From Stramenopiles sp. TOSAG23-2 (Eukaryota), in NCBI GenBank assembly GCA_900128395.1, contig LT649234.1:1-64000 (forward strand): a stretch of DNA of 64,000 nt, given 5' to 3'. A program made the translations under genes and the position numbers. Below the pieces are notes generated by a model. The model searched no databases and was not told the DNA's origin. It saw nothing but the letters and a program-made list of their open reading frames with translations. Positions 4,519-31,300 of the stretch are shown in pieces; position 1 is the first letter of the stretch; the number at the start of each line of letters is the position of its first letter.

Positions 4519-5136
4519 ATATTATATATCATTTTTAGTGTGTAATGCGTGTTTTATGTACACTGGGATGGAAGACACACAACAAAAACGAGAGAGAATA
4601 TTTTTTATAACACACATATTATATATATACTTCGTATATTATAACATGATGAGATGTGTTGTTCCACTTGAAATTATAAAATATCTCATTGCTTGGTTAC
4701 TAATTTTTTAGTGTATCTTTTTTATAAATAATAAGGCAAAATTATCCTTTTTGTTTTCTCAACAACAGCAGTGCTGATGTGTGTAGTGTTTCCGAATAAA
4801 ATAGTAATATAAATACTGTAATATAATACAATACTAAAATATATACTTAATATTTTATCTGTGCCTACTCTACATGTATCAGTAAAATAGTGTTGTAGGT
4901 ACTTACGCACTTATAATTTAATACTGTACGTTAGGGAGCTCATTAATATATCTATCATGTATTATACACATGCTACCAGGTATGCACACATACTTTTTGT
5001 GAATACACATATTTTTGTTGCATTTATATTTTAAAATATATATATGTTAAAAAAATCATATTCATATATAGTGGCTTATCCTCCTTAAAAAGTTAGTTTT
5101 ATATTGCAATATTATTTAATTAAATACATATAGACA

Positions 5137-11766: not shown

Positions 11767-13905
11767 TCACACAGTATTAAATTCACCTTGCATTAATTGT
11801 ATTTTATTACCACGACTACATGCAATTAAACTACCCCATATATTATTTGTACCGACACATTCTACGTTACCAATATCAACACTACCTTTACTTTCTAAAA
11901 CACCTGTTTCAAAATTAAAAATACTCAACGTATCCGTCTTTGCACCATTTGTTAATATATTTTTACCATTAGCAACAAAACACGGATGATAAATACTACC
12001 ACGTTGATTATCATATATATGCGAATGTCCTTTCAATTGTTTCACGGGATTTTGAAATTTTCTTAAATCCCAAACATTTATAGTATTACCAAAATCTGCA
12101 CTAATTAATGAATGTTCTTCTGTTGGATGCCATGAAATACTATTTATTGCATAATGATGGGCATTATCATCACTTTGTGTAGTTAATCCTTTTTCAACGC
12201 GTATATCATAGATGAATATGGTGGAATCATTTCCACCAGATGCAATTATATTATCATCACGAAACGAAGTAGATTTTACAACACCAGTGTGAAAACAATA
12301 TTCATGTAATGGAAGAATACCTTTTCCTTCCTCATGAATTTTGGACACAACAACACTTTTATCTTTTGATCCAGTCACAATTTTACCATTTCGCTCATGA
12401 GCACAAAAAATACCATTATTATGCAAATTATTATTTGTCGCTAAAATTTTTGGACGTATATCTTTTTTACGCTCTGTATTTAATTGTTTTGTCATATCCC
12501 ACAATGTCAAGACAGCATCGTTACTTGCTGTCATCAAAACGTGTTTCTTGTTGGAATTGATACTATTTATTAATTGAACAGTAGAAATCCATCCTGAATG
12601 AGCTTTAAAACTCATTAATGGTTCTATGAAATCATATTCATCTTCATCTTCTTCATATGTACGTACTATATCATGTATGCCAAATGCAGAAACCATTCCA
12701 CCGTGTCCACCAGCTATGAATACATCTGGTTGCTCCACTTGTTGGAATGATATTGAATAGATTTTCTTTAATTTTGGATCAGAGAAATATTTATCATTGT
12801 TTCCAACATTTTTTAAACGTTTTAATGTTGTTGTATTATTAAATGTACTGGTTGATGGTAATGCAACTTTTTCCACTCTTACTTTGTTTTTATTATTGTT
12901 ATTATCATTTCCATTCTGATCATCGTCATAACATGAATATGCAAATATATTCGAAATATCAAATGGTAATTCTTCTTCTTTTGGTTCTTCAATAACACGT
13001 GAGCTAGAAGATCCATAGCTATTATTGTTACTATTACTACTTTCCACATTTTTTTCTAAATCATTTTCATTATATGATATATTTTGTTGTTGTTGACGTC
13101 TTGAACGACGAACTGGTCTAGTAGATACCAGTTTTTGATTCGTTTGCTTACGTTTCTTTTTTGTCGATTTCAATTTTACCTTCTTTTTCTTCAAAGTATT
13201 TGAAATCGCTGCTTTCGCTTTACCAAGGCCCAAACTTTCCAAAATACGCTTGTTTCGTTCAATATTTTCTAATCGACGTTGTTCATATAATGATAAACCA
13301 GTAACAGCATCATATTGAATATTGTTTTCTTCCACTTTATCTACTTCTTTTTTTTGAGGTGCTGCCTCAAAAGCAGAATCATTTTTCTTCTTCGTTTCGT
13401 CCTTTTTTTCCCCATCAACTGTGATGGTATTTAAATTATTGTTTTTATAATTGCTATTATTATCATTATTATCTTTGTTATTTAGCATTGTGGTTGTCGA
13501 TGATGCAGATGGTGATGATACAAGTTCATTGTTATTATTATTACTATTATTATTTTTATACATATTAAAAGATACTTTTGCTGTAGTTTCATTAATTCCA
13601 ACATCACTGAGTTTCTTCTTTTTATTTTGTTTATTCTGTTGCTTTGGTATTTTTCTGGTAGTTGTTTTCTTTTCTGCCTCTACAAAAATGGTATTATTCT
13701 TGCTTTGAATACTATCGCTTTCACAAGTTTTTCTTTTCTTCTTTTCATTATTATTTGATGGTGTCTTGTTATTATTATCGTTTCCTTTTTTTTCCTTCTT
13801 CTTATTTGTCGCAGAATTTGTTTTTGATGATGTGGAAGAAGTTGTTTTTTTTGATTTTGAGAAAAATGAAAATAACGATGCTTGTTTTTTTTTCTTGCTT
13901 TCCAT
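11767..13905 (-). CDS. WD40-repeat protein, WDR76/Cmr1-like, with N-terminal PIP box
   Basis: KQASLFSFF (QxxLxxFF PIP consensus), LSLYEQRRLENIERNKRILESLGL helix, and several WD repeats in the C-terminal half. Confidence 0.75.
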   Translation of the reverse strand: MESKKKKQASLFSFFSKSKKTTSSTSSKTNSATNKKKEKKGNDNNNKTPSNNNEKKKRKTCESDSIQSKNNTIFVEAEKKTTTRKIPKQQNKQNKKKKLSDVGINETTAKVSFNMYKNNNSNNNNNELVSSPSASSTTTMLNNKDNNDNNSNYKNNNLNTITVDGEKKDETKKKNDSAFEAAPQKKEVDKVEENNIQYDAVTGLSLYEQRRLENIERNKRILESLGLGKAKAAISNTLKKKKVKLKSTKKKRKQTNQKLVSTRPVRRSRRQQQQNISYNENDLEKNVESSNSNNNSYGSSSSRVIEEPKEEELPFDISNIFAYSCYDDDQNGNDNNNNKNKVRVEKVALPSTSTFNNTTTLKRLKNVGNNDKYFSDPKLKKIYSISFQQVEQPDVFIAGGHGGMVSAFGIHDIVRTYEEDEDEYDFIEPLMSFKAHSGWISTVQLINSINSNKKHVLMTASNDAVLTLWDMTKQLNTERKKDIRPKILATNNNLHNNGIFCAHERNGKIVTGSKDKSVVVSKIHEEGKGILPLHEYCFHTGVVKSTSFRDDNIIASGGNDSTIFIYDIRVEKGLTTQSDDNAHHYAINSISWHPTEEHSLISADFGNTINVWDLRKFQNPVKQLKGHSHIYDNQRGSIYHPCFVANGKNILTNGAKTDTLSIFNFETGVLESKGSVDIGNVECVGTNNIWGSLIACSRGNKIQLMQGEFNTV

Positions 13906-14151
13906 AATATTTGATATATATATATATATATATGATTTATTGAATTATAATAATAATATTTTTGGATTCTTTTTATTCTAGATTTTTATATATCTTGTTT
14001 CATGACTACTACCAGATAAACACATATAATATATATATTTGAAATTTGAAATTATTTGTTTTTGTTTTTATACTTTACAGGTTAAGGTAACTTTGTCCTC
14101 GGATCTTCTTTCTATTATCATTTAGTACATATTTTAGTATAGTTAAGATTT

Positions 14152-15285
14152 TTAATTTACCCTGGTTAACCCCTTAAAATGATTGAAATTTTTAAATTCT
14201 TCCATATTTTCCTTCTTAACTTGAGCCGACATCTGTCCTTCTTCGTGAAATTTTATAGGATTAAAATACTTCGGTCTCCACTTTTCGTATAAATAGTTTT
14301 TGTGCCGTTTTTCAATACTAGACTTTTTAAACCAATCATATATTGAACCCCAAGTGGGCGAATTGCTATTCACCTCAATGCTTTCATACGATGATTTGTT
14401 GTTTGCCGCATCATACCCAACTTGAATATATTCTTTACAAAACTTGTCATACGCAGCATAATCGTCAGCACCACAGATATTTTTATGAGCACAACTAAAC
14501 GAGAACCAAGTATCGTGGCTTGAGATAAATTCTTTATTAATGTGGTATGCGTAATCCCAAAATTTTTCAATGTCTTTAGGATTTTTTTTCTCTGGCGTTT
14601 GTTGAATTGTTTCAAGGACTTGAGTAACTTGTTTTATTACTTCTATACTTTTTTTTTCAATCTCAGTGGCCTGATGATCATTGTATTTCATCCTAATCCA
14701 ATCTAACAAATCCTCGTCGGCTTTTCTAGGCAATACATCATTTTCCTCAAGACATTTTCTCGCTCGTAACTTTTTACTTCTCTTACACGGTGATTTCGTT
14801 GGCGGCAGTAAATGTAAAGTATGGATTAAAAATTCAACATTATTGATTTCAAACTTTTGAACTTGCTTTCCTTTCGGTGTCTTCAAATTTTCAAGTGTGT
14901 CGCACAACTCTTTATCTTCGCTAATATCTACACAACACCCAAAATTGCCTTCAGTTCCTGATTCCCATACACCTTTAGAACCACATTCTTCCTTAAAGTT
15001 GTTAAATAATAATTCTGCTTGATCGTGTTTTACAACATTTCCTTGATTTTGTCCATAAATATCAAAATCAATTCCAAGAATATACGATCCGTTTGGCTGG
15101 CGTCCACACTTAATTGCCCATTGTGTGCTTGTTTTGTTCAATTTGGGTAAAAATTGTTTTTTGTAATCTTCTATTGGATTTTTTTCGTCTAGTTTCCACG
15201 GTGCTGGGGTATTCTTACCACGGTTGTAAAGCAAATATTCTCCAATGGTGTTTTTGAATGGATGGTCTTGGCTAAAATCTATCAT
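14152..15285 (-). CDS. Virus-like primase-polymerase (prim-pol) + PriCT-2 domain protein, no helicase
   Basis: AIKCGRQPNG...LGIDFD (DxD), HLLPPT (cf. VVAPPS), then a PriCT-2-like stretch HDTWFSFSCAHKN...YDKFCK...YD...YESI...TWGSIYDW. Likely ATG at 15285. Confidence 0.7.
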   Translation of the reverse strand: MIDFSQDHPFKNTIGEYLLYNRGKNTPAPWKLDEKNPIEDYKKQFLPKLNKTSTQWAIKCGRQPNGSYILGIDFDIYGQNQGNVVKHDQAELLFNNFKEECGSKGVWESGTEGNFGCCVDISEDKELCDTLENLKTPKGKQVQKFEINNVEFLIHTLHLLPPTKSPCKRSKKLRARKCLEENDVLPRKADEDLLDWIRMKYNDHQATEIEKKSIEVIKQVTQVLETIQQTPEKKNPKDIEKFWDYAYHINKEFISSHDTWFSFSCAHKNICGADDYAAYDKFCKEYIQVGYDAANNKSSYESIEVNSNSPTWGSIYDWFKKSSIEKRHKNYLYEKWRPKYFNPIKFHEEGQMSAQVKKENMEEFKNFNHFKGLTRVN

Positions 15286-15354
15286 CTCTAAATAACTATT
15301 TTGATTCCTTTCTAAGTCCTTTATTATTAATATACATAAATTAAACAATGTATA

Positions 15355-15567
15355 TTAATTTGCTTCTATTGCTTTCGCCGCCGCTGCCGCCTTTTTCTTC
15401 TCCATATGCTTTCTAACATTTTTTAAGTTGTTCAATCGTCCCTTCTCTGTCTTCCTGTAACGCTTGATTCTTTCCAGATTTTTCTTTTTACGCTCCAAGT
15501 CTTTGTAATACACCTCAAGTAGCTTTTCAACTGGTATGCCTTCAATGATTATTTTTGGATCTACCAT
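15355..15567 (-). CDS. Small basic virus-like protein
   Basis: 70-aa K/R-rich helical ORF, tightly packed between two co-oriented ORFs, with AAATTGATTTAAAAA upstream. Confidence 0.6.
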   Translation of the reverse strand: MVDPKIIIEGIPVEKLLEVYYKDLERKKKNLERIKRYRKTEKGRLNNLKNVRKHMEKKKAAAAAKAIEAN

Positions 15568-15570
15568 CTT

Positions 15571-15610
15571 TTAATGTATATACATTAACATTCGTTTTTA
15601 AATCAATTTC
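15571..15610 (-). promoter_or_regulatory. Virus-type promoter candidate plus 18-bp palindrome
   Basis: Minus strand reads GAAATTGATTTAAAAA, close to the mimivirus early motif AAAATTGA. The perfect palindrome TTAATGTATATACATTAA (15571-15588) lies just before the ATG. Confidence 0.4.
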
Positions 15611-15622
15611 GTTAAATATTAA

Positions 15623-15826
15623 TTACTTCATCCCCTCAAGTAATAAAAATTGTTTTGTAAGAGGACAGTAATCAATGATTTTATATTTCTTCGGCTTTTC
15701 CTCTAAATATTTCTTGAGCTTTTGTAAATCGTTTTCTTTACATTCTTGACATACCTTCATCAACCTTGTATTCCAAATATACTTGAACGATAATAAATTT
15801 GTTTTGTCGCACAATTCGCAATCCAT
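15623..15826 (-). CDS. Small CxxC..CxxC zinc-finger protein, virus-like
   Basis: MDCELC...VCQEC; preceded by AATATATTAATAA-ATG. Confidence 0.6.
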   Translation of the reverse strand: MDCELCDKTNLLSFKYIWNTRLMKVCQECKENDLQKLKKYLEEKPKKYKIIDYCPLTKQFLLLEGMK

Positions 15827-15906
15827 TTATTAATATATTGGGTGAAATTTATTTGGTGGATCTTGCGCCCATTTTGATGGAAGAGCGATAGGTGTTGGTT
15901 GTGGGG

Positions 15907-18875
15907 TTACAACACTAAGCCATTGTACTCGCTATCAGTCAGTTGTTTCCCAGCTTTTTTCCACGCCTCTCGCATTTGATTTTTGCCTTTGTCCGTGATT
16001 TGTTTTTTGCCTAGCTGCCCTAAGGAAAGGTAGTTCAATGCGGTCATCTTGGCCAGGGCGGGCGCTAAATGCTCGCACCCTTTGTCCGTGATTTGGTTGC
16101 AGCGTAAGTCAAGCCTTTCCAATGCGGTCATCTTGGCCAGGGCGGGCGCTAAATGCTCGCAACCTTTGTCCGTGAATTTGTTGAAGTCTAAGTTAAGATA
16201 GTTCAATGCGGTCATCTTGGCCAGGGCGGGCGCTAAATGCTCGCAACCTTTGTCCGTGATTTGGTTGCCCTCTAAGTCAAGGCTCCACAATGCGGTCATC
16301 TTGGCTAGGGCGGGCGCTAAATGCTCGCAGTCCGTGATTTCGTTGCCGCTTAAGTCAAGCGTTTTTAATCGGGTCATCTTGGCCAGGGCGGGCGCTAAAT
16401 GCTCGCAACCTTTGTCCGTGATTTTGTTGAAGTCTAAGTTAAGATAGTTCAATGCGGTCATCTTGGCCAGGGCGGGCGCTAAATGCTCGCAACCTTTGTC
16501 CGTGATTTTGTTGTATTGTAAGTAATTGTTGTAATTTAAGTTAAGCTCTTTCAATGCGGTCATCTTGGCCAGGGCGGGCGCTAAATGCTCGCAACCTTTG
16601 TCCGTGAATTTGTTGAAGTCTAAGTTAAGATAGTTCAATGCGGTCATCTTGGCCAGGGCGGGCGCTAAATGCTCGCAACCTTTGTCCGTGATTTTGTTGA
16701 AGTCTAAGTTAAGATAGTTCAATGCGGTCATCTTGGCCAGGGCGGGCGCTAAATGCTCGCAACCTTTGTCCGTGATTTGGTTCTTCTCTAAGACAAGCTC
16801 TTTCAAGTTCGTCATCTTGGCCAGGGCGGGCGCTAAATGCTCGCAACCTTTGTCCGTGATTTGGTTGCTGCGTAAGGAAAGCTCTTTCAATTTAGTCATA
16901 TTGGCCAGGGCGGGCGACAAATGCTCGCAACCTTTGTCCGTGATTTTGTTTTTGTTTAAGTAAAGCGTTTTCAATGCGGTCATCTTGGCCAGGGTGGGCG
17001 ACAAATGCTCGCAACCTTTGTCCGTGATTTGGTTCTTCTCTAAGACAAGCTCTTTCAAGTTCGTCATCTTGGCCAGGGCGGGCGCTAAATGCTCGCAACC
17101 TTTGTCCGTGATTTGGTTCTTCTCTAAGACAAGCTCTTTCAAGTTCGTCATCTTGGCCAGGGCGGGCGCTAAATGCTCGCAACCTTTGTCCGTGATTTGG
17201 TTCTTCTCTAAGACAAGCTCTTTCAAGTTCGTCATCTTGGCCAGGGCGGGCTTTTCAATGCGGTCATCTTGGCCAGGGTGGGCGACAAATGCTCGCACCC
17301 TTTGTCGGTGATTTGGTTGTTGTTTAAGTAAAGCGTTTTCAATGCGGTCATCTTGGCCAGGGCGGGCGACAAATGCTCGCAACCTTTGTCCGTGATTTGG
17401 TTGCCGCTCAAGCCAAGCTCTTTCAAGTTCGTCATCTTGGCCAGGGCGGGCGCTAAATGCTCGCAACCTTTGTCCGTGATTTGGTTGCCGCTCAAGCCAA
17501 GCGTTTCCAATGCGGTATTTTTCTTTAACAGTTCCGCGACGATAAGCATATCCTCGTCGGTTAAGTTTTTACTGCTCAAGTCCCATTCTTTGCTCATATC
17601 CCAAAAAAAGAAAAAGCCAAGCTCTTTCAATGCGGTCATCTTGGCTAGGGCGGGCGATAAATGCTCGCAACATTTGTCCGTGATTTTGTTGTTGTTTAAG
17701 TAAAGCGTTTTCAATGCGGTCATCTTGGCCAGGGTGGGCGACAAATGCTCGCACCCTTTGTCCGTGATTTGGTTGCAGCGTAAGTCAAGCCTTTCCAATG
17801 CCGTCATCTTGGCCAGGGCGGGCGATAAATGCTCGCAACCTTTGTCCGTGATTTGGTTGTTGAGTAAGGAAAGCGTTTCCAATGCGGTCATCTTGGCCAG
17901 GGCGGGCGACAAATGCTCGCAACCTTCATCGTGTATGCCACACCCACTGTGAGCGCGCTCCAAATTTAGATCAATAATGGAAGTGTTGTGCTTCAACGCC
18001 GAGGCCAACGACTGGACTTGTGCTGGTATCAACTTTATCCCTATGTTTAATTCAGTGATGGTGTTGTTGGTAATCGCACGCAACGGCAACCCAGCGCCCA
18101 TCTCTATCAAGGATTTTAAATACCCGCACAGCCCCAACTTTTCTTTCCGCATTTCAAAGGCCACCTGCGCCACCCTGAACGCAATGGACAGCCCACTGAT
18201 AATCAACGATTGGATCAAGGCCGTTCCTGCTTCCTTCGTGATTCCTAAACAATTGTCTTCGTTCCCATCACAATAAAAGAAAATATACACTTGAAGAATG
18301 GTCTGTGGAAAGGATTCCAACAAACTTTCGCCCAAGGTGCGCAGTGCCTCGTATTGTGCCATAAAGGTGACCAACCCGTTCGGCAAGCACCTCTCCAACC
18401 CTTTGTAAAACGGCATCAAGATATCTAGGAACAGGGGGGAAATTGGAATCACAGGAAAAATCAATCCACAGCAGAAGAAATCACAAGCATTCCATTCTCG
18501 TTCCTTACTCAAATAGCGCATAATCCCCACGACCGCCACCACATAAGGCAATGCGATACAAATAACCATTATGTTAAACCACCCATAATGCTTAAACCGA
18601 TAGAAGGTGATACACAATATCACATCCGTATAAACGTCTAGAAAATACAGTGCCAAATTGATAGCGGCCAGGCAAAAATTGCCACACCAAAACACTTTTG
18701 GAAACTTTTGTTGGCATCCATCCACCTGCTTCCTCAAGGCACTTTTCTGCCGTCTTATATGGGAAACACGGCCTGCTGCGATATCCACCACCACTCCTCC
18801 CACCGCAACTGCCGCCATAGTATTGTTGGCCGTGTTCAAGACCGACTCCACCGATTTAACATTCTTTTGGTTCAT
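15907..18875 (-). CDS. XK-related (CED-8/Xkr-like) membrane domain fused to RI-like LRR array; frameshifted near 17251
   Basis: TM region has LYFLDVYTDV and LRTLGESLLESFPQTILQVY (XK signature). It is followed by 28-aa repeats xLxLxxNxITDKGCEHLAPALAKMTAL. ORFs 17232..18887 and 15907..17466 join across a 52-nt deletion. Confidence 0.75.
15985..17930 (-). repeat. 84-bp tandem repeat array encoding LRRs (~21 full units plus partials)
   Basis: Near-invariant GTCATCTTGGCCAGGGCGGGCGCTAAATGCTCGCAACCTTTGTCCGTGAT alternates with a variable ~30-bp segment. Confidence 0.95.
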
Positions 18876-19188
18876 TTTTTCTACCAAAATTGTTTTTTAA
18901 TCTATTTTTTTCTTGGATCGTTAAATTTAATTTTGCTTTTTGATTTTATTTTTGCTTTTTTGCGTTTGCGGTCAAAAGGCAGGGGCGAAATAATGACAAA
19001 GAAAATCAACCACAATAGGTAGGGGTTTTATCCAAAATTGGATGGGTGTGAAGGAAAAGTGTTTTGTTTTGTTGCGCGTTGATGTGCGTATGTGCGTATG
19101 TGCGTTTCAATATTGTGGCAATTAAAAAATATTGAACTTGCCTTGAGCTAATAATAACAAAAAAATATCTAAAAAAGACATTTTAGAA

Positions 19189-19550
19189 TAGCAGGGTCAC
19201 AGCATTGGCTAACAATAGAAATGCGTATATGAATTTCTTGAAAATCACAACACTTTTTCCCATACTAATCGCCTGCTAACGACTGATGTTAGAGAAAATC
19301 ACTAGCCACCATAGCGATAGCATTACCAAATGGCTTTTCGCTTCATTTTGCCTATTTTTATACTTAGACACTACCAAAAACACCCATTTTGATAGGGCAA
19401 ATAATGACCATATCTTCTACTTGAGATGCGATAACACTAGCTTGAATACCGCCTATCACAAAATGCTTTATGATTATTCACAAAATCACTACTATGTTTA
19501 CTGATTATAGAAAAAATCACTAAATCCATCTACCTGCTATGACCCTGCTA
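19189..19550. mobile_element. Putative non-autonomous TIR element (16-bp TIR) with AAAATCAC repeats
   Basis: TAGCAGGGTCACAGCA (19189-19204) versus TGCTATGACCCTGCTA (19535-19550) is a 15/16 inverted match. AAAATCAC occurs at 19241, 19295, 19482 and 19513. Confidence 0.5.
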
Positions 19551-20216
19551 AAAATACGAGATTAGTGATTTTCGTCCAAATCACTAACCCTCTTATGATT
19601 TTTGATAAAATCATTAAAAAATCTTGATCTTATACCAATTCTTATACTTGACATCTCCCTACATACCTGGTGGCTCTCAAGTTTTCGGTAACAAAAATCA
19701 CTTACATTGTTCAAGATAGATAGCTTGATTTAATTGCCATCGCTCAAAAAGGGGGAGGGGGGGGAGGGTGCGGGGAGGGTATTATGGTTTGTGGGGAGTT
19801 TAGCCTCCCCCTCCCTTTCCCTTACCATATACCATCACAAATATATGAATTACTTGATAATTTGTTACCATAAGAAAAATGAAAAAGGGGGAGGCTAGAA
19901 AAAATAGATTTCTAGAAAGTTCAAAATTATTTTCAACTTAAATAAGTTTAGTATTTACCCCTCCCTTTTCCTCCTTTCCCTCCCCCCCTTTTTTGGAAGG
20001 GGTATTAACATTCAACAACTATCGGGGTGAAGTGTGACCATATACCAAGCGCGGATGAAATATTTATTAACGATTTATTAACAGAATGTAGTGTAATTCA
20101 TTAACTAACTGATATAGATCGTTTATGAGCTAACACTATTTCAACTACTTATTAGAATACGAATCGGCATCCCTATACCAGATATTCTAGACCCGAGTAT
20201 ATGAGATGTAATATTT

Positions 20217-21920
20217 TTAAAAACATTGAAACTGATTGAAACCTTTACGTATAATATTATCCATAATTTTTTGCCGTGATGCCTCTGTACCAATACCATA
20301 TTTCATACTGTCTTCCTTGCCAAGAATGGCGCTATAAGTTTTTTCCAATGTTAATGCGACACCGGTTAATTCTCTAACTTGTTGTGCGATAACGCATAGA
20401 TTTGGGTGAAATAATTTCATTTCCTTACTTTTTTTTCTCTTTGAATATTTATCGCGCTTGCTATCGCTTTCGATATATTTGTTTAATAATTTTAGGAATT
20501 CATCATCTGAGATTTCTGGAGAAGCTTGCGGGAATAACGAACGTAAAAGATTAATGGATACAGATCTTTTTATATCTTCGTCTTCTAAATTTACTATACC
20601 AGATACAATTTCATCATTCACTTTTTTCAATGTATCAAAATCTTTTAACATATTTGGGCTTAATTGAAACTCACTTTCATCCTTTAGAGTAAAACGCCGT
20701 GACATATAACCTTTTAGCTGATTTGGAAATATTTTAGTTAAATCCACTGGATTGCCATCTAAATCATGACCATTTACAAATCCATTTTCATATAAGCGAT
20801 TGTAAGTATGCATAGTAACAGAAGCGTTATGAATTGCTGCTGTCATTTCAAGATCAGTGCGTATTTGTTTCGACTTTGGTAAGACTTTACAGCTAGTCGT
20901 TGATAAAAGATCCATTATAGCATGTATATTCAAAGTATTAATAACCCGTTTCTGTAGTTGTTTTGGTTGCTGTTGTGGTTGCTGTTGTATTATATCATCT
21001 TCATTTTCCGATTCTGTTTCATCTTCTATAGTTGAAAGTTCTGGTATAGTTGGTAATTTTTTCAATGTTAAACCATCTTCACTTTCCGGTCCAAGGTATC
21101 CATTTTCTAATAATTTATCCATCATAGTTTTCCATTGTTTCAATGGCAACCATTTTTTACTATGATTGAAATCTTGTTTCCATTCCCAGAATGCACAACT
21201 TACTTGTTGTTCCCCTGGATCATCTTTAGAATTATATAAATAGTCCATAACATTATAAGCATCCCATCGTTTTTTTGATGGCATCCATGTATAATGAAAT
21301 TGTGTTCCATCACCTGTTAGGTATTCTTTATATTTACCTGTTTCTTCGTTAAAACCTCTCGACCAAGTTTTTTTGTCAAAGCCAACACGTAAAAACGCAA
21401 AGCCAGAATATTGTGGTATATGTTTATACCAGGAGTGAGAGCGAGCAATTGTAAATGAATAATCAACAATTTGACGCGGAGCAATATTATGAGATTCCTC
21501 GTCAACTTGAACTTGTTGCAACAGCTCCAAAACACGTGGTTTCAACAAATTTCTCTCTTCTTTTTCTGCTTCATAGTACTTTTGCATTTGCAAAATAAAA
21601 TGATTCGACGTATTTCCAGGCAATTCTTCTTTTTGTAAATATTGCCTCCACAACAAATTAGCATTTGGCTCATGTAGCAATGCCTTTTCCATTGATTTAG
21701 AAATAAATGTCATTTTCATGGTTTCAACATATTTTAAATAAGTACATATATGCACTAATAAATCAACGTGAATGTCTGCAAGCATTGGTTTTGCTGCTTT
21801 AATTTCGTCACTATTATTACTAATTATATTTTTTTTTTCGTCAGATATTATTACATTTTTTGTATGCTTTTCCTCCTTCGTTACAGTTGTTCTTTCTTCA
21901 TTTTTGCCATTGATATTCAT
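20217..21920 (-). CDS. F-box-like protein with uncharacterised C-terminal domain
   Basis: LADIHVDLLVHICTYL...ISKSM...LLWR fits the F-box consensus; 567-aa ORF. Confidence 0.65.
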   Translation of the reverse strand: MNINGKNEERTTVTKEEKHTKNVIISDEKKNIISNNSDEIKAAKPMLADIHVDLLVHICTYLKYVETMKMTFISKSMEKALLHEPNANLLWRQYLQKEELPGNTSNHFILQMQKYYEAEKEERNLLKPRVLELLQQVQVDEESHNIAPRQIVDYSFTIARSHSWYKHIPQYSGFAFLRVGFDKKTWSRGFNEETGKYKEYLTGDGTQFHYTWMPSKKRWDAYNVMDYLYNSKDDPGEQQVSCAFWEWKQDFNHSKKWLPLKQWKTMMDKLLENGYLGPESEDGLTLKKLPTIPELSTIEDETESENEDDIIQQQPQQQPKQLQKRVINTLNIHAIMDLLSTTSCKVLPKSKQIRTDLEMTAAIHNASVTMHTYNRLYENGFVNGHDLDGNPVDLTKIFPNQLKGYMSRRFTLKDESEFQLSPNMLKDFDTLKKVNDEIVSGIVNLEDEDIKRSVSINLLRSLFPQASPEISDDEFLKLLNKYIESDSKRDKYSKRKKSKEMKLFHPNLCVIAQQVRELTGVALTLEKTYSAILGKEDSMKYGIGTEASRQKIMDNIIRKGFNQFQCF

Positions 21921-22367
21921 CGCTATTTGTAAAATAGATTTTATATTATAAATATTTCAAACAAGTAATACAATTTACAAATGACTTTCTTTATTTCTAC
22001 GTAGACCTCATCGTCGTCTTATATTGTTTGTTTATGGGGTTATATAAGTGCTTGTCAGTTGTAAATAATACATATATGAATTTTATGTGCGTATTTTAAT
22101 ACATACAGCTTAGCCAGTTAGTAGTTAGAATATTATATTACCTGGTAGAATATATATATTAATAGTCGTCTATTATAATATTAGAAATATTGAACTATCT
22201 ACCACCTGTTGTGGTAAAAGCCTGATCCCAGCTAGCATCACAATAGCATTGAATGGTGGACTGTAATTATTTCAATTATATTTTAATTTAGAGATGTTTT
22301 TATTATATATATAAAAAACAAATCACGACGAGACAAGAAATTAATAATCTAGTGTGTAATTTTATTT

Positions 22368-25300
22368 TTACTTCTTCTTCCTTTTACTTTTACTACTCTT
22401 TTTATCAACTTTCCCTTTTGTATTGCCTCGCTTTGCAGCCCTTGCAGCAGCTCTTTGTTTTCTCTTTTCATCACGTTCTTTTGCTCTTGCAGCAGCATCC
22501 ATTTTCCCAGAGCCTTGTGCACGTCTTTGTAACCTTTTTTGTCTCTTTTCACGCTCTGCATCATCAGCTTTTTTCTTTGCCAATTTTGCTTCTGCGCTAT
22601 TTGCTTCCTCTTCTGCTTTTCTCTTTGCCATTGCTGCTTCCATTTTCTTTTCAGTTTCTTCTTGTTTCTTAAGTTTCTCTGCAAGTATACGTGCTTCTTC
22701 TTCCTCTTTAGCTTTTTGCTCAGCAGCTGCTTTCTCAGCCATTTTTTGGTCATATTCTTCCTTATTTTCTTCTGCAAGTTTCTCCAACCTTTCAGCTTCT
22801 TCACGTTTAGCCTTTTCTTCCTCTGCTTTTTTTTGACGTTCTGCACGCTCTTCTTCTGCAATACGTTTCTTTTCCGCTTTTTCTGCTTCTTCCTTTTCTT
22901 TTTGTGCTTTTTCCATTTGTTCTCGTAACTCTCGTGCTTTTTTCATAGCTGCCTTTTGTGCCTCCTCCAATTCTTTCTTCTCGCGTTCGGCTTCTTCTTT
23001 TTCTCTTCTTTCCTCCTCAATTAATTTCTGCTTCAAACGTTGTGCAGCAGCTTCTTTAGCAGCAGCATCTCGTTTAGCTTGAATTTCTGCTCTTGCCAAT
23101 GCTTTTTGACGTTTTTCAGCACGCTTTGCAAGTAATTGCGTAATACGGAATTTAGGATAAAAATATGGCGCTGCAAGCACTTTTCCAACCATACCACCTG
23201 GTATGTCATCGTCCCATCTTTTCTTCACCTTAATACGGTCTGCACCTCCAGCTTTTGCATCAAATTTTCCAGCAACCCTAGCATTTGCTTGTTCAGTAAA
23301 GCTCATTGTTTGTGCACCACGTCGCGCTTCACGCGCCTTTCTTCTTATTTCTGCTTCGCGTCTTAAACGTGCATTTTCAGCCTTTTCTCTTTGACGTTGC
23401 GCATACATTTGACCAGCCAATCTAGCTGATTCTCTCGCTAGTTGTGCCTTTTTATATGTATCTCGTATACCTTTTCGTATTGTCATTTTTGCATTTAACA
23501 AAGTCATATTGAAACCTTTTAATTCAAGTTGTCCATGATCAGCTGTTAACCACCACATTGCAAATTCACCAAAGTCAATTTCTCCACTTCCATCACGATC
23601 AATAGCTTTAAGAGCTTCTGCAATTTGCTTTCTATCCATCAATTCACCAACTTCATAGGCTAATTGTTGGAATTCTTTCGCATCTATTTCACCACTTCCA
23701 TCAGCATCAAAGACATCGAATGCAGCTCTAATTTCTGCAAGCTCAGTTTCATTTGCAGTTAAGAAACCACGCAAGCGATCGGCGTAACGATCTTCGCCCA
23801 TCATACTACCCCATTCGTGTGAAATTGGTTTCAATTGCTTCAATGAAATATTTCTTCGACGTTTTTGCATCATTAAGCGGAATCGTTCCATACGACGTCG
23901 TCTACATGCAACTTGCAACGCAAAACGCAATGCCAATTCTTTCTCCCGTCTTTCCGCCAATGCAAGCCTAACAGCTTCTAATTGCTCATCGCGTTCTAAA
24001 CTATCTTGGACCCATCGCATTTTATGATGCGACAATGTTGGCACTCCATTTTGATTCATGATGACAAGTTGAGAGATGATTCTCTCCGCTACTCTTCGTA
24101 AGTTTCTATGGCGATCTATGCCATTCAACAATCCAGGAATATCCTCACAAGCCCCGGTTAATACATCTTCATCAGGAACGATAACCATACGCTGTTGCGT
24201 AGCAGGCTCAAAACCAAGAATAAACAGACGACCCAAGCCTTGTGCAGGCGCTTTGCTTTTCCCCCGAATAGCTTGCAAAATAACCAATCGACCATGCGGC
24301 GGCAATCTTCGAACAACTTTACAAACAGTTCGATCCAATGCAATTTTGGATTTGTTTTTTTGCAATGTTAAATGTTTTAGCATCCATTGAATCATATTGT
24401 CACGGTCATATAATGGACGATGCCCCAAATGATCTTCACGACCTTCTCTTGACGCTGCTACTAATGATTCTAGTTCATACTGATGTACCTTTGTTGAAAT
24501 AATGCGCATATTATTGACTTCAGCAGCATACTCTAACGCAGATCGTCTATACGTTCTTCTACTATATTCAGTACGAGTGTCTTCATCATCTAAAACAGTC
24601 GCAGCCAGCAATGGTTTTGTACTAGTAGCTTCTTGATAGAGTTCTTTTAATAGAGCTGGCTTACAATTTTGTCGCAATGAACGTCGTTCATTCATGTTTT
24701 TCTTCCATCTTGGCAAGCGTATTTTTTTCGCTGCAGCTGCAATCTGTGCATTTTCTTGTGTCATGTCCATGTCTATCTTTTCATCCCGAGAAATAATTTC
24801 ACCCTTCTTCCCCTCAGAATGATCAATTTGATCTTCAGCAACTTCAGTTGACTTTAATGTTGGAACTGGTTGAGATTTTGTTGGAACCCAATCACCAGGT
24901 TTTAATTCCGATAATCGTTTTGCTGCACTAAGGTCTGACTTGATAATATCATTTCCACTAACGCGACCTTTTTCACCTCTCATCATCCAAATAACATCAC
25001 CAACGACATCTTTTTGAGCCAATATAGAAGCACGAAGATTTCTAGTGATAGAGTAACGATAAAATAATACCGCACCTGTTTTTGGCAACACCATTCGTTC
25101 TATACGACGCTCCGATGCGGGATTTCCTTGACCCAGTAGATGCAGCACGGCATTTTGCCAAGTGGCCAAAGATAGCCGTAAAAGAGATGCTCTTTTAGCA
25201 CTATTTACGGGCAAGAAGACCCCAGTGAAATGTGTTGGCATGGCATTGGAATTAGTAGCAATATTTAAATCATCCGAGACTTCATCTCGTTCAAATAAAT

Positions 25301-28300
25301 CTAAACTGCTTTCAGTAGCTGATTTTTTCTTCTCCATAGCTTTGTTTAAATCCCACTCTAAATCATTTTCTGCATTTTCACCTGTTTTAGCAGCACTTGC
25401 AAGATCTTTTAAATTTAAAGTTGGTTTATCTTCCACGTGGCGTATATGTTGTGTTTTGTGATCATTCGCTGCAAACTCTTCCACAAATAAATGTTCAAAT
25501 GTGGCGCTAGTCTCATCATCCATATCTAAACCTTCCATATAGTCATCTGTTTTTTTTGATGATAATGCAAGATCAGCTCCCTCCACGGTGCCTTTCTTGT
25601 TCTTCTTTTTCTTTTTCTTCTTACCTTTCTTGGCACCTTTTTTATGCCCATCATCTACAGATCCATCATCGCTTGGAGCATTCATATTTGAAGGAGTTTG
25701 CACGATCCAATCCTCGTTTCCACCACTCGTGCTCCTTGAGCTTAATGAACCACCTTGTGAAGCGGCTGAGGATGCGCTTTCGACCGGAATAACATCCGGT
25801 GCATATGCCATTAAGTTATCAAATGTACCATCAACTTCATCTGCAATTGCTTTTCTACTTAAAGCGCCTTTGAAATCGTGAGCTATTTTCAAGACAGTAT
25901 CCTCCGCGAGTAAATTGGAAATCGCTCCAAGGATATTTTTCTTATCGATATGTTTATCCCATGTTAATTTAGTTTCCTCTTCATTTACATAAGTTGCAGA
26001 AACACCTAAGTTAGAGCCGACACCTCGCAGTGTACGGCGTGAGAACCATCGTTCCTTTCGTATATTTAATTCAATTGCTGTATCATATGCAATTTCTTTC
26101 CCAACTTTTACAGCAAGTCGTTTTTGCAACTCTTCTTTGATTCCGTGAGTTTCCAAACCGCGAACTTCAAGCGCCTTTCTGAGTGCAAATGTTTGCATTT
26201 CAAATGGCTTTGGGTATTCTTTTTGCATTCCTTCCTCCTCCTGTAATTCTTTGACAGTTGGGGGCACAGCAACAGCTAATTCTTCATCTGCTACTTCAAT
26301 AGTCCATTGCTGAGATGATTCTGGATGGTATGCTTCGTACCTTGCACCACCCTGACCACGCCATAAACTAACTAACAATCGCATAGGTGTCCCATCTGGC
26401 CCTTTACAAAGTTTCGATGTTCGTAACAATGGACGAGGTTTCTCTTCCAATCTATTTGGTTTTCCATCTTGTGTCTTATCAACTTTACTGAGCCAACTTA
26501 AACTGGAATATGCTTCATTACCACTTCCAGTGCAATAAGGCAGCAATGCAGCACGTTTGCAGAAACGATACTTTTTACCATGTACTGGTAAGGCTGTTGT
26601 TCCAGCACTAGGTGACAAGGAAAGCATGAGACCACCTTCATGCCCCACCGTATTTGGACGCAAAACCAACATATCCACCATTTCAATCGCAGCTTTATTG
26701 ATACCTAAATGTTTTCTCCAACGTTTACCATCTAAATCATCAGCATCGATCACCACAGCATGGGTCTCGGCACGCGCTGGATCATATACTTCTACCCGCA
26801 ATATACTACTTAAATCCATTGCACTACCATGTCGACGGCCAACTTGGGATACACCTTGCACAGTTACTATAGCAGTAGTATTTCTAATTTTTCTAACAGT
26901 CCTGTACCAAACCTTTCCAAAGTCTCTTGAATCCCTCTCATGATCCATTTGTTTTTTAATTGACATTGGATCATCGATCGAGTATGGTTTTTTTCCCAGT
27001 CGTCTCCATCTGCGTTTCAATTTTGATTTAGTTGGTCTCCAATTACCTTTACCAGCCTTTTGAAGCGCGTGCATCACTTCTGGAGGAACCTCACTTAGAT
27101 TTTGTAAATCACTTGTCTTCCAAAAATGTATCCCTTCCGGTAGTAGTACAAACGATTTCGTTTCATCCGGCAATCGCGGCGTACCTTCGTCAACTGCAAT
27201 TACTTTCTTCGTTCGAGGAAATTTGTAACCCAACTGAAAGACTACACTCGCATACATATTATCTTCAATCCCTGATGTCGTTAAGAGCTCGCTGACTTTG
27301 TCGACTTTCAAACCAAATACGCTATCAGTATTTGTTACGTATCTTAAAGATTGGAAGACGCTAGGATACATTGTATGAGAATTTGGTTCTTTTTCATCAT
27401 CTATATTGGCAAAAACAGGTTCCCATGCTTGTACTTTTTTCTCTTCAACGACTTCTTCCTCGACGTCTTTCACGACAACTGGTGGAAACGCAATTCTTGA
27501 TCTATTTTCAAATGTATTCATAAGTTCCGAGTCAATCATAGCTTCATCATCCCTATCGCCATATTTTAATGATATTCCCATACCAACTCGCCTGGATAAT
27601 TGGGTCAAACGTTGCAACCTATCTGCAGCTACGTTTTCTATACGAGGAATCTTTTCAACTGCTTTCTTTTTCTTCACTCTCTTTTTTACAAGCTTCTTAG
27701 TAACCTTTACGCTTTTTTTAATATTTTCCAACATATATGTTGTTGCTTCATCAGCCACATGTCGATATGCTTCTTCATTTGCCATTAATATTCTCTCTTC
27801 TTTTGATCGGCGTCCATCGCCTTCCCAAACGGTTTCTGGTCTCATTCGCACCCAAATGTTACGACTATCCTTGTAAGAACCAAATTGTCGTACCATAATT
27901 TCAACAACAAAGTGAGTAGCATTGATTAAGCGACCTTTGACATGTCTCCCACCAAAGCAACGCGTGCCGTAAAATATTCGTTTCCAATGTTCTTTAGGTC
28001 GTAACCGAGATATAACTAATCGCAAACCACTCTTTAATTTTTGATGCGCCACCTCACGCCTCCAAGCGCTACATACTCTCAAATGCTTTTTACGTTCCAA
28101 AGTTTCATCGTAAAATTGACCCGCGCAATCACGGATGGCACTTATTAAACGATCACACGTAGCCTTACCTAGATCTCTACTTGCTTTCGCATCATTCAAA
28201 TTCTTAGCCAACATACGTAACAATGCCATTGGTTTATGTTTACCACCATCAGCTTCTGCAACATCTTCAGCCGCTAATGCTAAGTCACGCAGACGCAAAT

Positions 28301-31300
28301 ACTCTACTTTTGCATATTCTAATTCCTTTTTCAACGCATTTAGTCGCCCAAATGTATGTATACATTTCAACGCAGCAGTCTCCGCCATTTTCTCCAATGC
28401 TCTCAATCGTAATGTCATCATCTTATGGCGTCCAGCATCTGGATCAGGCCTCAAAGCAAGCAAATCAAGCATGTATTTCCACATTTCAATACCGCGATCG
28501 CTTAATAATTTAGGCTCGTCCTTTAGCACTACTCTTAATCGATCCCGAGAAACATTTATACTATGTCGATGAGCACTTCTTGGATCATGCGCTTCTAGTA
28601 TCATATCTCCACGTGAATTTTCTAAGACGCTAACAGTCATTTGCTGCCCACTAATATTCCTAGTCTCTTGATGTTTTATCATGTATGTCTCTCGCAATCT
28701 TTTCCTTAAAATCAATATCTTCACCCCAGCACCACTGTCTTCTCGTAAACCCCTTGATTGGCCTTTGCGTATATCTTCCATGAAGCCCATAGCATCCCAT
28801 TGCAATGTGCCAATGCCTTCCCAAGGTGGTGGAGGTTGTTTTGGAACAGTGATAAATGTTAATTTATCGACTATACGACGCAATAAATCCGGGCTGTAAA
28901 CATTGGTTTTAACAGAGCTTTCCCAGTAATCAGCCCATTTTGGAACCTCGCTTAGCGCTGCAGTAACATCATCAAAAAGCACTCGCAAGGAACAGCCGAG
29001 TCCACTGCGGGGATGATAAGCCTCAAAAACTAAATCGCCGTTATTTTCATGTATGGATAATACAACATAACCACCACCAACTTTTCTGCCTTCACTAAAT
29101 ATTTGCACTCCTTTTCCACTAGATTTTTGTTTGAGCATATCACGCCACCAATAACAGCGTTCTAATCTTTCAAATAAGATACGACGCCGTTTACGTAATA
29201 AAAATTTGTCTAAAATAACATCATCTTTATCGTACCTATTCAAACAAAGTAATTTAATCAAACGCTCGATGACGACACGTCGTCGATTGTCGAATACATT
29301 CCTTCGTTGCACAAAACCTCCATGGGGTTTACCTGTGCGTAGGGACCACATGTCTACAGATGCAGCATGGAATATCACACTGCACTTAGGACATCTCAAA
29401 ACTGGACCCCCTCGACCATCTACACCTATGTTAACACCTGAATATGGGTGTGGACGCAGTGCGATCTCATGATCTTTCACCGACGTTAAGCGTTGACGTG
29501 CTCGAAGCCTGTGGCCACATCCTTCCGTTGGACAAAAAAATTGTGTATCTGCATCTTCTTCTATAGGATCAAATAAGTCTCTATTTTCATGCCCTAATGC
29601 ATCAACTAAATCTGGGCGATTGAATGAAAGCAAAATATGCTTCCGGGTTTCAGGCTCATAAATTGAAATGGCAATACCCCCAACGAACGGAGGAAGTTTA
29701 TTTTGACTAGACATCGGATCTTCATAGACACTGATTATTGCTAATTTCCTATGTGGTTTTTGATTTAAAAATGGTTGCGATACTAAGAACATAGCTTTTC
29801 TATATCTCATATTCCAACCACCAAATACAATAGGAACCGGGCGTAATGGCTGTATATCAATTGTCCATTCGGGTTCAAAGAAGACCAACGAACGCCTCCC
29901 ATTTGTACGCGGTAACGCGCGGAGAGTTAACATCTTTAAAATTCTGTGAACAATTTCAACCATCATTGGTCTGGCAACTTTACTACTTTCAACAATACGT
30001 GTACATTCGCGTCTTGCAACAATCGATCGTTTCAAGGCTTTATCATATAAAACTTTTGCATCATCAACTCGACCTTTTGCTTTTTGCATAATATATTTAG
30101 CTTTAAAATGATGACGTCTTGCTTCCTCGCGTTCCAATGTACGCAAAATCAAAGATTTCTTCGCTTCATATTTTCTTTTAATCCAGATGTGATCATTAGC
30201 ATTTTCCAATGGATCGAACGAAAAACTTTCATTTGACCGACTCAAGTCAGCAAATACTGCTAATTGCTTTTGTACAAAATGCATTGAATTATCACTAGCA
30301 TATATCATAGCTTGCAATTGAATTTGCGTACGGAAATATAATCTATGCGCTTTTAAATATAAGTGTTTCATATGTGCAGCAAATGCAGCTATTTCACGAA
30401 ATGCTTTTTCAACTTTGTCTAATGCTTCTTTTTTCTCCATGGCATCCTTTTCACAAGCAAGAGCAAACCGTTCAACATCCCTGGCATTTTTGAAAGCTTC
30501 AGCAGATTCACGCAATGGTTCAAAACGATCACGGCGATATACACCAATATTTTGCCTCAAGCAATAATCACTAGGCAAGCGCTCATATCTACAAGCAGTA
30601 GGCACCAGTGCATCCATTGCCTGCCCTCGTCTTTTTGTGTCTAGTAGTATTCTTCTTCTCATTTCTTTTTCGGAGACAGACAAACTGTAAACAACACTTC
30701 GCATCGCACTGTAACCACGTACCAACATACGTTCTATCGGCCTTTCCGTTTTACATGTACATGGACCGTGCTGCACCACCATTCGCTGTGTGGCTAAATC
30801 CCACCGCGCCCTTGGACGCCATTTTAAACAAGAATAGCAAGTTGCAATTACTTTACGATATTTATAATCGTAATGATTACTTCTAAAGACCTGTAAAACA
30901 ACATCTTCATTATCCATTTGATGTGTTCGTGAATACACAGGCTTTAATATAGCACGTCGAGCCTTTTTAATTCCTTGTTTGAGAATCTCTGGGACAACTC
31001 GTCTAGCAGTCAAAGCACACGCCATTTCTCTTGCAACATGCAATTTTACTTTAATTTTTCGGTTTTGCCTAATCATCATGGACAGTGATCGTGCAACATG
31101 GCCACGATAAACCCTTTGACACGTATTTGCAGCAAGAGTTCGAGCACGATACCGTGCAACTGCAGCTTCTGCTTTGTCAGCATCTAACAAAAGCAAGGAA
31201 CCTTTAATTTCCCTTGCAAATTTGACAAGTGCAATCACTCTTTTTACATCTATTAAATCAGGATTTCGAATACTTTTAATTATCAGTCTTTGAACCTTAC

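Follow-up and report, generated by a model that had tools for sequence, protein, structure and literature searches.

Small double-stranded DNA viruses of the polinton-like and virophage kinds are known to fill protist genomes as endogenous elements, and for such insertions the exact limits and a matching empty site are seldom available. Full elements measure 15–30 kb in the portions of PMC10120064 consulted here. In mavirus and related endogenous virophages, a variable gene built of FNIP/FGxxFN repeats, which belong to the leucine-rich repeat (LRR) class, lies at the genome end (PMC10945749, likewise cited for the portions consulted). Here we describe an inserted island in a 64,000-nucleotide stretch of Stramenopiles sp. 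TOSAG23-2 (contig LT649234.1, positions 1 to 64,000; this whole stretch is called the window below), in which a fragment of a viral genome encloses a gene for an XK-related protein with LRRs, the XK-LRR gene. The island was inserted into the end of a host gene, and is best read, on balance, as a recent, truncated and replication-dead endogenous element of the polinton-like or virophage-like kind (Preplasmiviricota) with the XK-LRR gene as probable cargo.

As far as the consulted portions of PMC10120064 and PMC10945749 describe endogenous polinton-like viruses and virophages, the locus resembles them in several respects. It derives from a small double-stranded DNA virus with a primase-helicase and sits in a protist nuclear genome, its GC content is unlike that of the host, its genes are compact and co-oriented, and an A32-type ATPase, a lipase and a capsid-like gene are found among its relatives. 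In contrast to full polinton-like elements, it is only ~6 kb long, has no capsid gene, ATPase, integrase or terminal inverted repeats, and is broken off inside the primase-helicase. With the mavirus FNIP gene, as characterised in the same portions of PMC10945749, the XK-LRR gene shares a repeat of the LRR class, a position near one end of a small-virus genome and variability between similar genomes. It differs in that its repeats are of the RNI type (LRR_6) and are fused to an XK-related membrane domain, in that it is much GC-richer than the backbone around it, and in that it is known here only from an integrated copy.

The insertion and its empty site

Four minus-strand genes, encoding the XK-LRR protein, a Zn-ribbon-like protein, a basic protein and a primase, lie between a WD40 gene and a gene for a 567-aa protein (Table 1). 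A preliminary description of the locus, made from its letters, had noted that these genes are co-oriented, tightly packed and free of the poly-Asn tracts of the host, and all of this holds: the spacers are 80, 55 and 69 bp (with the primase start taken at the ATG at 15285, which all close relatives use), and 0 of the 4 genes has a poly-Asn tract. The F-box label given there to the 567-aa gene finds no Pfam support at E ≤ 0.01. The island limits of 14080–20000 are corrected to 14182–20224 by a contig from a marine metatranscriptome (X6), which links 14181 directly to 20225 and skips 6,043 bases; seven letters at the joint fit either side, and the shorter side is 85 letters long. Similarity to related viral loci in metagenomes (L001 to L004, described below) ends within about 10–35 bp of the island ends, since homology to L002 stops at ~14189–14197 and homology to L001 starts between 20188 and 20218.

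The protein encoded across the site gives a further view of the empty form. In that form, the 8 bases beyond the right copy of the 7-bp repeat (14181–14174) finish the codon for the penultimate Ser and also provide a terminal Phe codon and the stop, predicting a C-terminus of QFQSF, where the window protein ends in QFQCF (penultimate Ser to Cys). A protein 95% identical to the 567-aa protein (P0117), which stands for a cluster of 45 sequences, ends in QFQSF as predicted, and this C-terminus is support for the empty site that is independent of the X6 contig. The flanks are found adjoining without the island, a synteny check that the preliminary description had proposed. The host gene survived the event because the first bases of the island restore the Phe codon and a stop. 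Two further relatives of the 567-aa protein (P0118 and P0119, 93–96% identical) end in VRVKV rather than IRKGFNQFQ(S/C)F; the difference may lie in the gene models, or may reflect another allele or an alternative 3' end.

A spliced intron was considered as an explanation of the X6 joint and rejected, as there are no GT..AG ends on the coding strand within the 7-nt play, and the joint falls where viral homology ends on either side and where P0117 has its C-terminus. A reverse-transcriptase template switch at the 7-nt repeat is conceivable for the X6 contig alone, but not for P0117.

The stretch itself is contained in two small runs of one organism and one study (X1 and X2) and in marine metagenomes and metatranscriptomes. 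Contigs of X1 and X2 both cross both host junctions and both junctions between the XK-LRR gene and the viral backbone, which answers the earlier call for sequence spanning the junctions; a 6,201-nt contig of X1, for example, matches 13000–13877 and 13946–16060 and so spans the right junction. The X6 contigs that cover 15180–15661 show 0–2 differences each, against 8 in 508 letters and 2 in 371 for the adjacent host gene; X6 is an RNA library, and presence in it does not prove transcription. The insertion is young, because the viral ORFs (open reading frames) have no internal stops, their ratios of nonsynonymous to synonymous substitution (dN/dS) are low and the X6 contigs differ so little. Loose contig ends occur at 14196 (X2), 18929 (X1) and 19012 (a further metagenome, X3), where a match to the window is followed by up to 255 unlike letters. 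Parts of the island may be present there as further copies or variants, either in this organism or in its relatives.

The viral genes and their relatives

The primase ORF is a viral gene cut short by the insertion, and its last 12 codons and stop (14152–14188) are host DNA. The window protein gave no match in Pfam (AEP models included) or PHROG, and none in the PDB by phmmer. An exhaustive HMMER search returned 93 relatives, 33 of them at E ≤ 1e-10, most of which are 760–1000 aa long and are matched over their first ~350 residues. Among 16 of these relatives, Pfam recognises PriCT_2 in 14, the DUF5906 superfamily 3 (SF3) helicase in 8, D5_N in 3 and AEP_C962R in 2, and PriCT_2 falls over the region aligned to the window primase. 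The AlphaFold model (pLDDT 86.3 with a 61-sequence alignment, 37.7 from the single sequence) has an archaeo-eukaryotic primase (AEP) prim-pol domain at ~aa 5–208 and a PriCT-2-like helical domain at ~aa 234–336. Its top Foldseek matches are the prim-pols of pRN1, African swine fever virus (ASFV) and NrS-1, with a probability of 1.00 to the pRN1 entries 3m1m and 1rni. In VIA comparisons, the AEP domain aligns with the pRN1 prim-pol with Z 10.5 and a root-mean-square deviation (rmsd) of 3.5 Å over 162–164 aa, and model residues 234–336 align with residues 295–397 of ASFV PrimPol with Z 9.0 and an rmsd of 3.0 Å over 98 aa. The best matches in BFVD are giant-virus primases, with which the ESM Atlas agrees.

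In AEP proteins, motif II takes the form sxH and motif III is an acidic residue. Motif I of the window primase, D73-F-D75, is invariant in 7 of 7 aligned sequences and at least 90% conserved in 61, and S109, T111, G113, N114 and E151 are conserved in the family, with the invariant Asn N114 of SGTxGN standing where His might be expected. Like ASFV PrimPol (8iqh, 8wwa) and pRN1 ORF904 (1rni, 3m1m), the protein has an AEP fold followed by a PriCT-like helical domain and a DxD motif at D73/D75; unlike them, it has its family's Asn N114 in SGTxGN and is without the helicase half, and identity to them is 10–12%. The prim-pol label of the preliminary description is upheld by the HMMER relatives, the model and the fold search alike.

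The window primase is a member of the AEP/prim-pol superfamily and the N-terminal stump (~365 residues) of a primase-helicase of ~850 aa. Its alignment ends at the point where the relatives run on for ~450 aa into the helicase, the C-terminal SF3 helicase with its Walker A motif is absent because the ORF stops after residue 377, and the primase-helicases of L001 and L002 carry DUF5906 (E 3.6e-16 and 2e-16). In the complete enzyme, the AEP domain would make primers and the SF3 helicase would unwind DNA. Against its relatives, the primase part shows a dN/dS of 0.24–0.35. With the block ending ~365 residues into the primase-helicase, the element lacks the helicase and every capsid gene and is unable to replicate or spread. 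The earlier speculation that the primase might drive recombination of the repeat array finds no support in such a truncated remnant.

The two small proteins are encoded by conserved genes of the same virus. Neither has a Pfam family at E ≤ 0.01 or a PHROG match. The basic protein is 72% identical in amino acids to its 67-aa copy in L001 (dN/dS 0.12), and the Zn-ribbon-like protein is 90–91% identical to its copies in L001 and L003 (dN/dS 0.03–0.13).

One metagenome scan yielded eight related loci, on contigs of 10–18 kb. L001 (82% nt identity) has the order and spacing of the window, with a Zn-finger gene and a basic gene, each of 67 aa, ahead of a full primase-helicase, and L003 is 92% identical in nt over the stretch from the Zn-finger gene to the primase. 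By blastn, window 15878–14213 corresponds to L001 2385–4029, window 20075–19341 to L001 1242–1908 and window 20218–20130 to L001 238–329, so viral homology flanks the XK-LRR gene on both sides. In L002 (84–85% nt), the primase-helicase is followed by ORFs of 717, 485 and 305 aa. The ESM Atlas groups the 485-aa ORF with double-jelly-roll capsids (score 0.98, 229 of 256 features, with a recognition value of 1920 that lies below the tool's mark of 2300), and all 30 neighbours listed fall in clusters that are 92–100% viral, several of them with capsid families. A more distant relative, L004 (45% in the AEP part), encodes a Pox_A32 ATPase (E 2.8e-8), a lipase and a chromo-domain protein, and a 465-aa ORF adjoins the Pox_A32 gene. 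The capsid candidates of L002 and L004 show no pairwise similarity. Pox_A32 was found only in L004, the contigs of the close relatives (L001–L003) ending short of where a packaging ATPase could appear. Two scans of IMG/VR, with a 7-sequence primase alignment and with the L001 primase-helicase, gave no confirmed relative. This gene set and the contig sizes fit polinton-like viruses or virophages as described in the consulted portions of PMC10120064.

The XK-LRR gene

The XK-LRR gene encodes an XK domain (~17961–18875) followed by 22 LRR units, mostly of 84 bp. Pfam recognises both parts, XK-related (PF09815) at 45.6 bits against a cut-off of 24.8 (E 6e-12, profile positions 2–177 of 337) and LRR_6 at E 2.6e-64. 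With XK-related proteins it shares an N-terminal multi-pass domain that scores above the cut-off; unlike them, it matches about half of the profile, is fused to the 22 LRR units and has relatives with LRR or ankyrin arrays. The animal proteins Xkr8 and XK have roles in lipid scrambling. Sixteen relatives of the XK domain, 40–74% identical, were found in metagenomes and one EukProt proteome: 11 have LRRs, 3 have ankyrin repeats (one of them with both) and 3 consist of the XK domain alone.

The domain content that the preliminary description gave to the gene is therefore sound, but the gene is not one open frame. It consists of two overlapping ORFs (17232–18887 and 15907–17466), split because a 32-nt partial repeat unit at 17242–17273 shifts the frame. 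The other 21 of the 22 units are in frame (84, 78, 102 or 204 nt), and the 22nd forms a C-terminal cap. The frame break may be real or an assembly error; several units are identical, none of the contig pieces listed for X1 and X2 spans the array, and the bin 16976–17259 has a depth of 0 in X1 and 14.6 in X2. In X3, the viral and host parts are covered and most of the XK-LRR gene is not, a lack of cover that is no evidence either way. Unit 4 (17560–17650) has an odd in-frame insert and is given as 204 nt, and an X6 contig over 17455–17656 differs from the window at this unit by 11 letters and insertions of 1 and 2 bases. Related LRR genes therefore exist in the environment.

The G+C richness of the gene, which had been read from its codons, is clear in numbers. 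Its overall GC is 0.46–0.50, and its G+C at third codon positions (GC3) is 0.57–0.68, against 0.15–0.30 in 13 host genes; the three small island genes have 0.31–0.44.

Origin of the island and of its passenger gene

The virus genome from which the island derives would have begun with a left-end non-coding region rich in repeat motifs, followed by an accessory-gene slot, the Zn-ribbon-like and basic genes and the primase-helicase. The slot would have been filled by an XK-LRR gene captured from a GC-richer source before integration. The left ~6 kb of this small double-stranded DNA virus entered the last codons of a gene of an AT-rich marine protist as a single block, which a 7-bp duplication flanks. 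The substrate may have been a linear viral genome, broken or only partly replicated, that was joined into a staggered chromosomal break, either through end-joining by the host or through an integrase reaction at one end that repair then finished. We lean towards the view that the XK-LRR gene was cargo, captured before integration, and its source was most likely a GC-richer cellular or viral genome. It lies within the single inserted block, co-oriented with the viral genes and tightly packed, its stop only 80 bp from the ATG of the Zn-finger gene. The slot it fills differs among relatives, holding a 135-aa ORF in L001 and different content again in L003. The variable FNIP gene at the end of mavirus-like virophage genomes (PMC10945749) offers a precedent for such cargo.

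Several observations weigh against this account. By tblastn, none of the eight related loci has a relative of the XK-LRR gene, although the full slot is covered in L001 alone and 264 bp of it in L003. Scans of IMG/VR for the XK domain and for the LRR peptide pattern ITDKGCEHL gave no match. The GC3 of the gene is as far from that of the viral genes of the window, L001 and L002 (0.29–0.44) as from that of the host, and a long residence in this virus is therefore unlikely. The XK+LRR and XK+ankyrin proteins known from metagenomes and a single EukProt proteome suggest that its family could be cellular. Near both borders of the XK-LRR cassette, at 19393–19383 and 15878–15868, stands an 11-nt direct repeat (minus strand ATCAAAATGGG) that may be the mark of a separate insertion or a recombination scar, a shared promoter word, or chance. 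As to the virus and its insertion, the island has neither an integrase nor terminal inverted repeats, and its right end is a break inside a gene; the capsid call for the 485-aa ORF of L002 has no Pfam or PDB sequence match; the empty-site joint comes from one contig of one RNA library, matched at 90% likeness; and X1 and X2, of one organism and study, amount to at most one independent confirmation, as one of them may be the source of the window.

The most serious competitor, to which we give a minor but real chance, is a nested origin in two steps, in which a truncated viral fragment arrived first and an XK-LRR cassette of ~3.3–3.5 kb with its own upstream sequence was added later by ectopic recombination or repair. 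The foreign GC3, the want of any viral relative with the gene and the 11-nt repeat would all suit it, as would the ~300 bp upstream of the XK-LRR ATG, which are G+C-richer than host intergenic DNA, as if a flank had moved along with the gene. The cassette nevertheless occupies precisely the slot that also varies between L001 and L003, the blastn match to L001 begins only ~28 bp from the XK-LRR stop, and spacing is virus-like. No transposase, long terminal repeat or poly(A) was seen at the gene, the viral ORFs are undecayed, so that a second event within these 6 kb would have had to follow quickly, and the 11-mer may be chance, at ~0.01–0.03 for two AT-rich segments by our own arithmetic. Cargo status is still preferred. 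The reading offered in the preliminary description, a prim-pol endogenous virus carrying an LRR gene as cargo, is for the most part supported by the viral genes, by the viral homology on both sides and by the absence of the block as a unit from the empty site, while the cargo part is left without a relative that has the XK-LRR gene.

Less room is left for other readings of the island as a whole. The absence of capsid, packaging ATPase and integrase genes from the window, and a capsid assignment in L002 that is a language-model look-alike, would also suit a plasmid-like or transpoviron-like prim-pol element rather than a capsid-encoding virus; but the same primase-helicase is coupled in L002 to three large ORFs, the 485-aa one with viral Atlas neighbours, L004 has a packaging ATPase beside its 465-aa ORF and the contigs are of polinton-like size, and we consider such an element improbable. 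More improbable still, and rejected here, is the other reading of the preliminary description, a host defence or receptor locus in which a resident XK-LRR gene captured viral DNA downstream. LRR arrays are common in immune receptors and the four genes are co-oriented, yet the empty site lacks the XK-LRR gene as well as the viral genes, viral homology stands on both sides of it and its codon usage is unlike that of the 13 host genes. About as remote, and likewise rejected, is an assembly artefact, either two loci misjoined via LRR repeats or an amplification chimera, for which the identical units and the unbridged interior of the array might speak. The same four junctions recur in contigs of X1 and X2, and a mis-join through LRR repeats cannot explain the structure because the outer flanks are neighbours in the empty form, so that both halves belong to one locus.

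The left-end non-coding region

Between the host gene and the XK-LRR gene lies a viral non-coding region of conserved blocks and a variable, repeat-bearing spacer (Table 1). The upper part of the XK-LRR upstream region that has no L001 match retains viral AAAATCAC-type repeats (motif matches at 19241 and 19295). Good inverted repeats are all confined to 19189–19993, in this upstream non-coding part, with pairs in 19746–19993 and in 19189–19550 (19189–19204 with 19535–19550); no pair joins the two island ends, contrary to the earlier statement that inverted-repeat DNA occurs on both sides.

Within 19746–19993 (L001 1321–1572), a purine-rich motif occurs four times, arranged as two nested inverted pairs; it reads AAAAAGGGGGAGG in the window and AAAAACAGGGAGG in L001. 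Between the two elements, all copies of the motif have changed alike, which gives 4 paired changes in the G-rich/C-rich stems, out of 7 both-sides changes across 92 predicted pairs. The arrangement could be a protein-binding array, an origin or a structured transcript; the DNA fold of 19730–20075 has a z of only −1.71. A cluster of AAAATCACTA-type repeats at 19241–19703 (463 bp) holds 8 of the 29 matches in the window at ≤1 mismatch and 4 of the 4 exact matches. No such cluster occurs in L001 (a single 1-mismatch match, at 4762) or in L002, and it looks like iterons or promoter elements particular to this variant. In L001, ORFs of 279 and 135 aa flank the conserved non-coding region, and their 65-nt starts (392–456 and 1964–2028) are 85% identical, with similar sequence upstream. 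The window has neither ORF: 55 bp replace the former and the XK-LRR gene replaces the latter.

Genomic setting

The window belongs to the nuclear genome of a cellular eukaryote and has genes for tubulin, GINS Psf3, eEFSec, PPR proteins, a polycystin channel and a CSN2-like PCI protein. Host ORFs are long and intron-poor, with a G+C of ~30% and a high Asn content. No Rfam RNA family was found in 13800–20400 at E ≤ 0.1, and no tRNA in 12000–22000. Adjoining the locus, 22368–35294 is a single ORF of 4,308 aa whose G+C (0.39) exceeds that of its neighbours.

Table 1. Coordinates of the island, its genes and its flanks in the window.
Feature	Position	Strand	Basis or remark
WD40 gene, host flank	11767-13905	-	Pfam WD40
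Truncated primase ORF, 377 aa from ATG	14152-15285	-	HMMER relatives, AlphaFold model, fold search
Inserted island, virus-derived fragment including the XK-LRR gene, 6,043 bp	14182-20224	-	X6 empty-site contig and limits of viral homology
7-bp direct repeat, right copy	14182-14188	.	Sequence; agrees with the 7-letter overlap of the X6 joint
70-aa basic Lys/Arg-rich protein, conserved small virus gene	15355-15567	-	Same place in L001 (2690-2893)
67-aa Cys-rich (CxxC...CxxC) Zn-ribbon-like protein, conserved small virus gene	15623-15826	-	In L001 (2433-2636) and L003
XK-related and LRR gene	15907-18887	-	Pfam, repeat-unit table
XK-LRR upstream region, without L001 match	18888-19340	-	blastn limits
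Left-end viral non-coding region	19341-20218	-	Conserved blocks and variable repeat-bearing spacer
Conserved block	19341-19479	-	blastn to L001 1768-1908, 82%
Conserved block	19730-20075	-	blastn to L001 1242-1585, 82%
Conserved block	20130-20218	-	blastn to L001 238-329, 75%
567-aa host gene, other flank, last codons hit by the insertion	20217-21920	-	ORF stays open
7-bp direct repeat, left copy (minus strand TTTCAAT), in last codons of the 567-aa host gene	20225-20231	.	Sequence

Implications

An endogenous viral fragment is a known kind of feature, and it is the passenger gene that is unusual. At this locus, both ends of the insertion are placed to the base, a fragment rather than a whole genome is seen to have been inserted, and the way in which the host gene stayed open is visible. 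If the XK-LRR gene was not cargo, the locus would be an ordinary dead viral fragment with a second insertion inside it. In the literature consulted on endogenous polinton-like viruses and virophages, no link to XK-related genes was found, and the supplements of PMC10945749 and PMC10120064 may list cargo genes.

A wider and distinctly tentative possibility is that the virus served as a vehicle between eukaryotes, delivering a GC-rich XK-LRR gene from another protist or a giant virus, unameliorated, to the nucleus of an AT-rich marine protist whose close relatives keep the empty site. While in the virus, the gene might have acted as a variable factor in interaction with the host or with a giant virus, a membrane-anchored counterpart of the mavirus-like FNIP repeat genes. 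If the gene was indeed cargo, the island would be a concrete case in which a large gene of cellular type passed from one eukaryotic lineage to another by way of a small DNA virus, and the variable repeat-protein genes at virophage genome ends would be extended to a membrane-anchored form.

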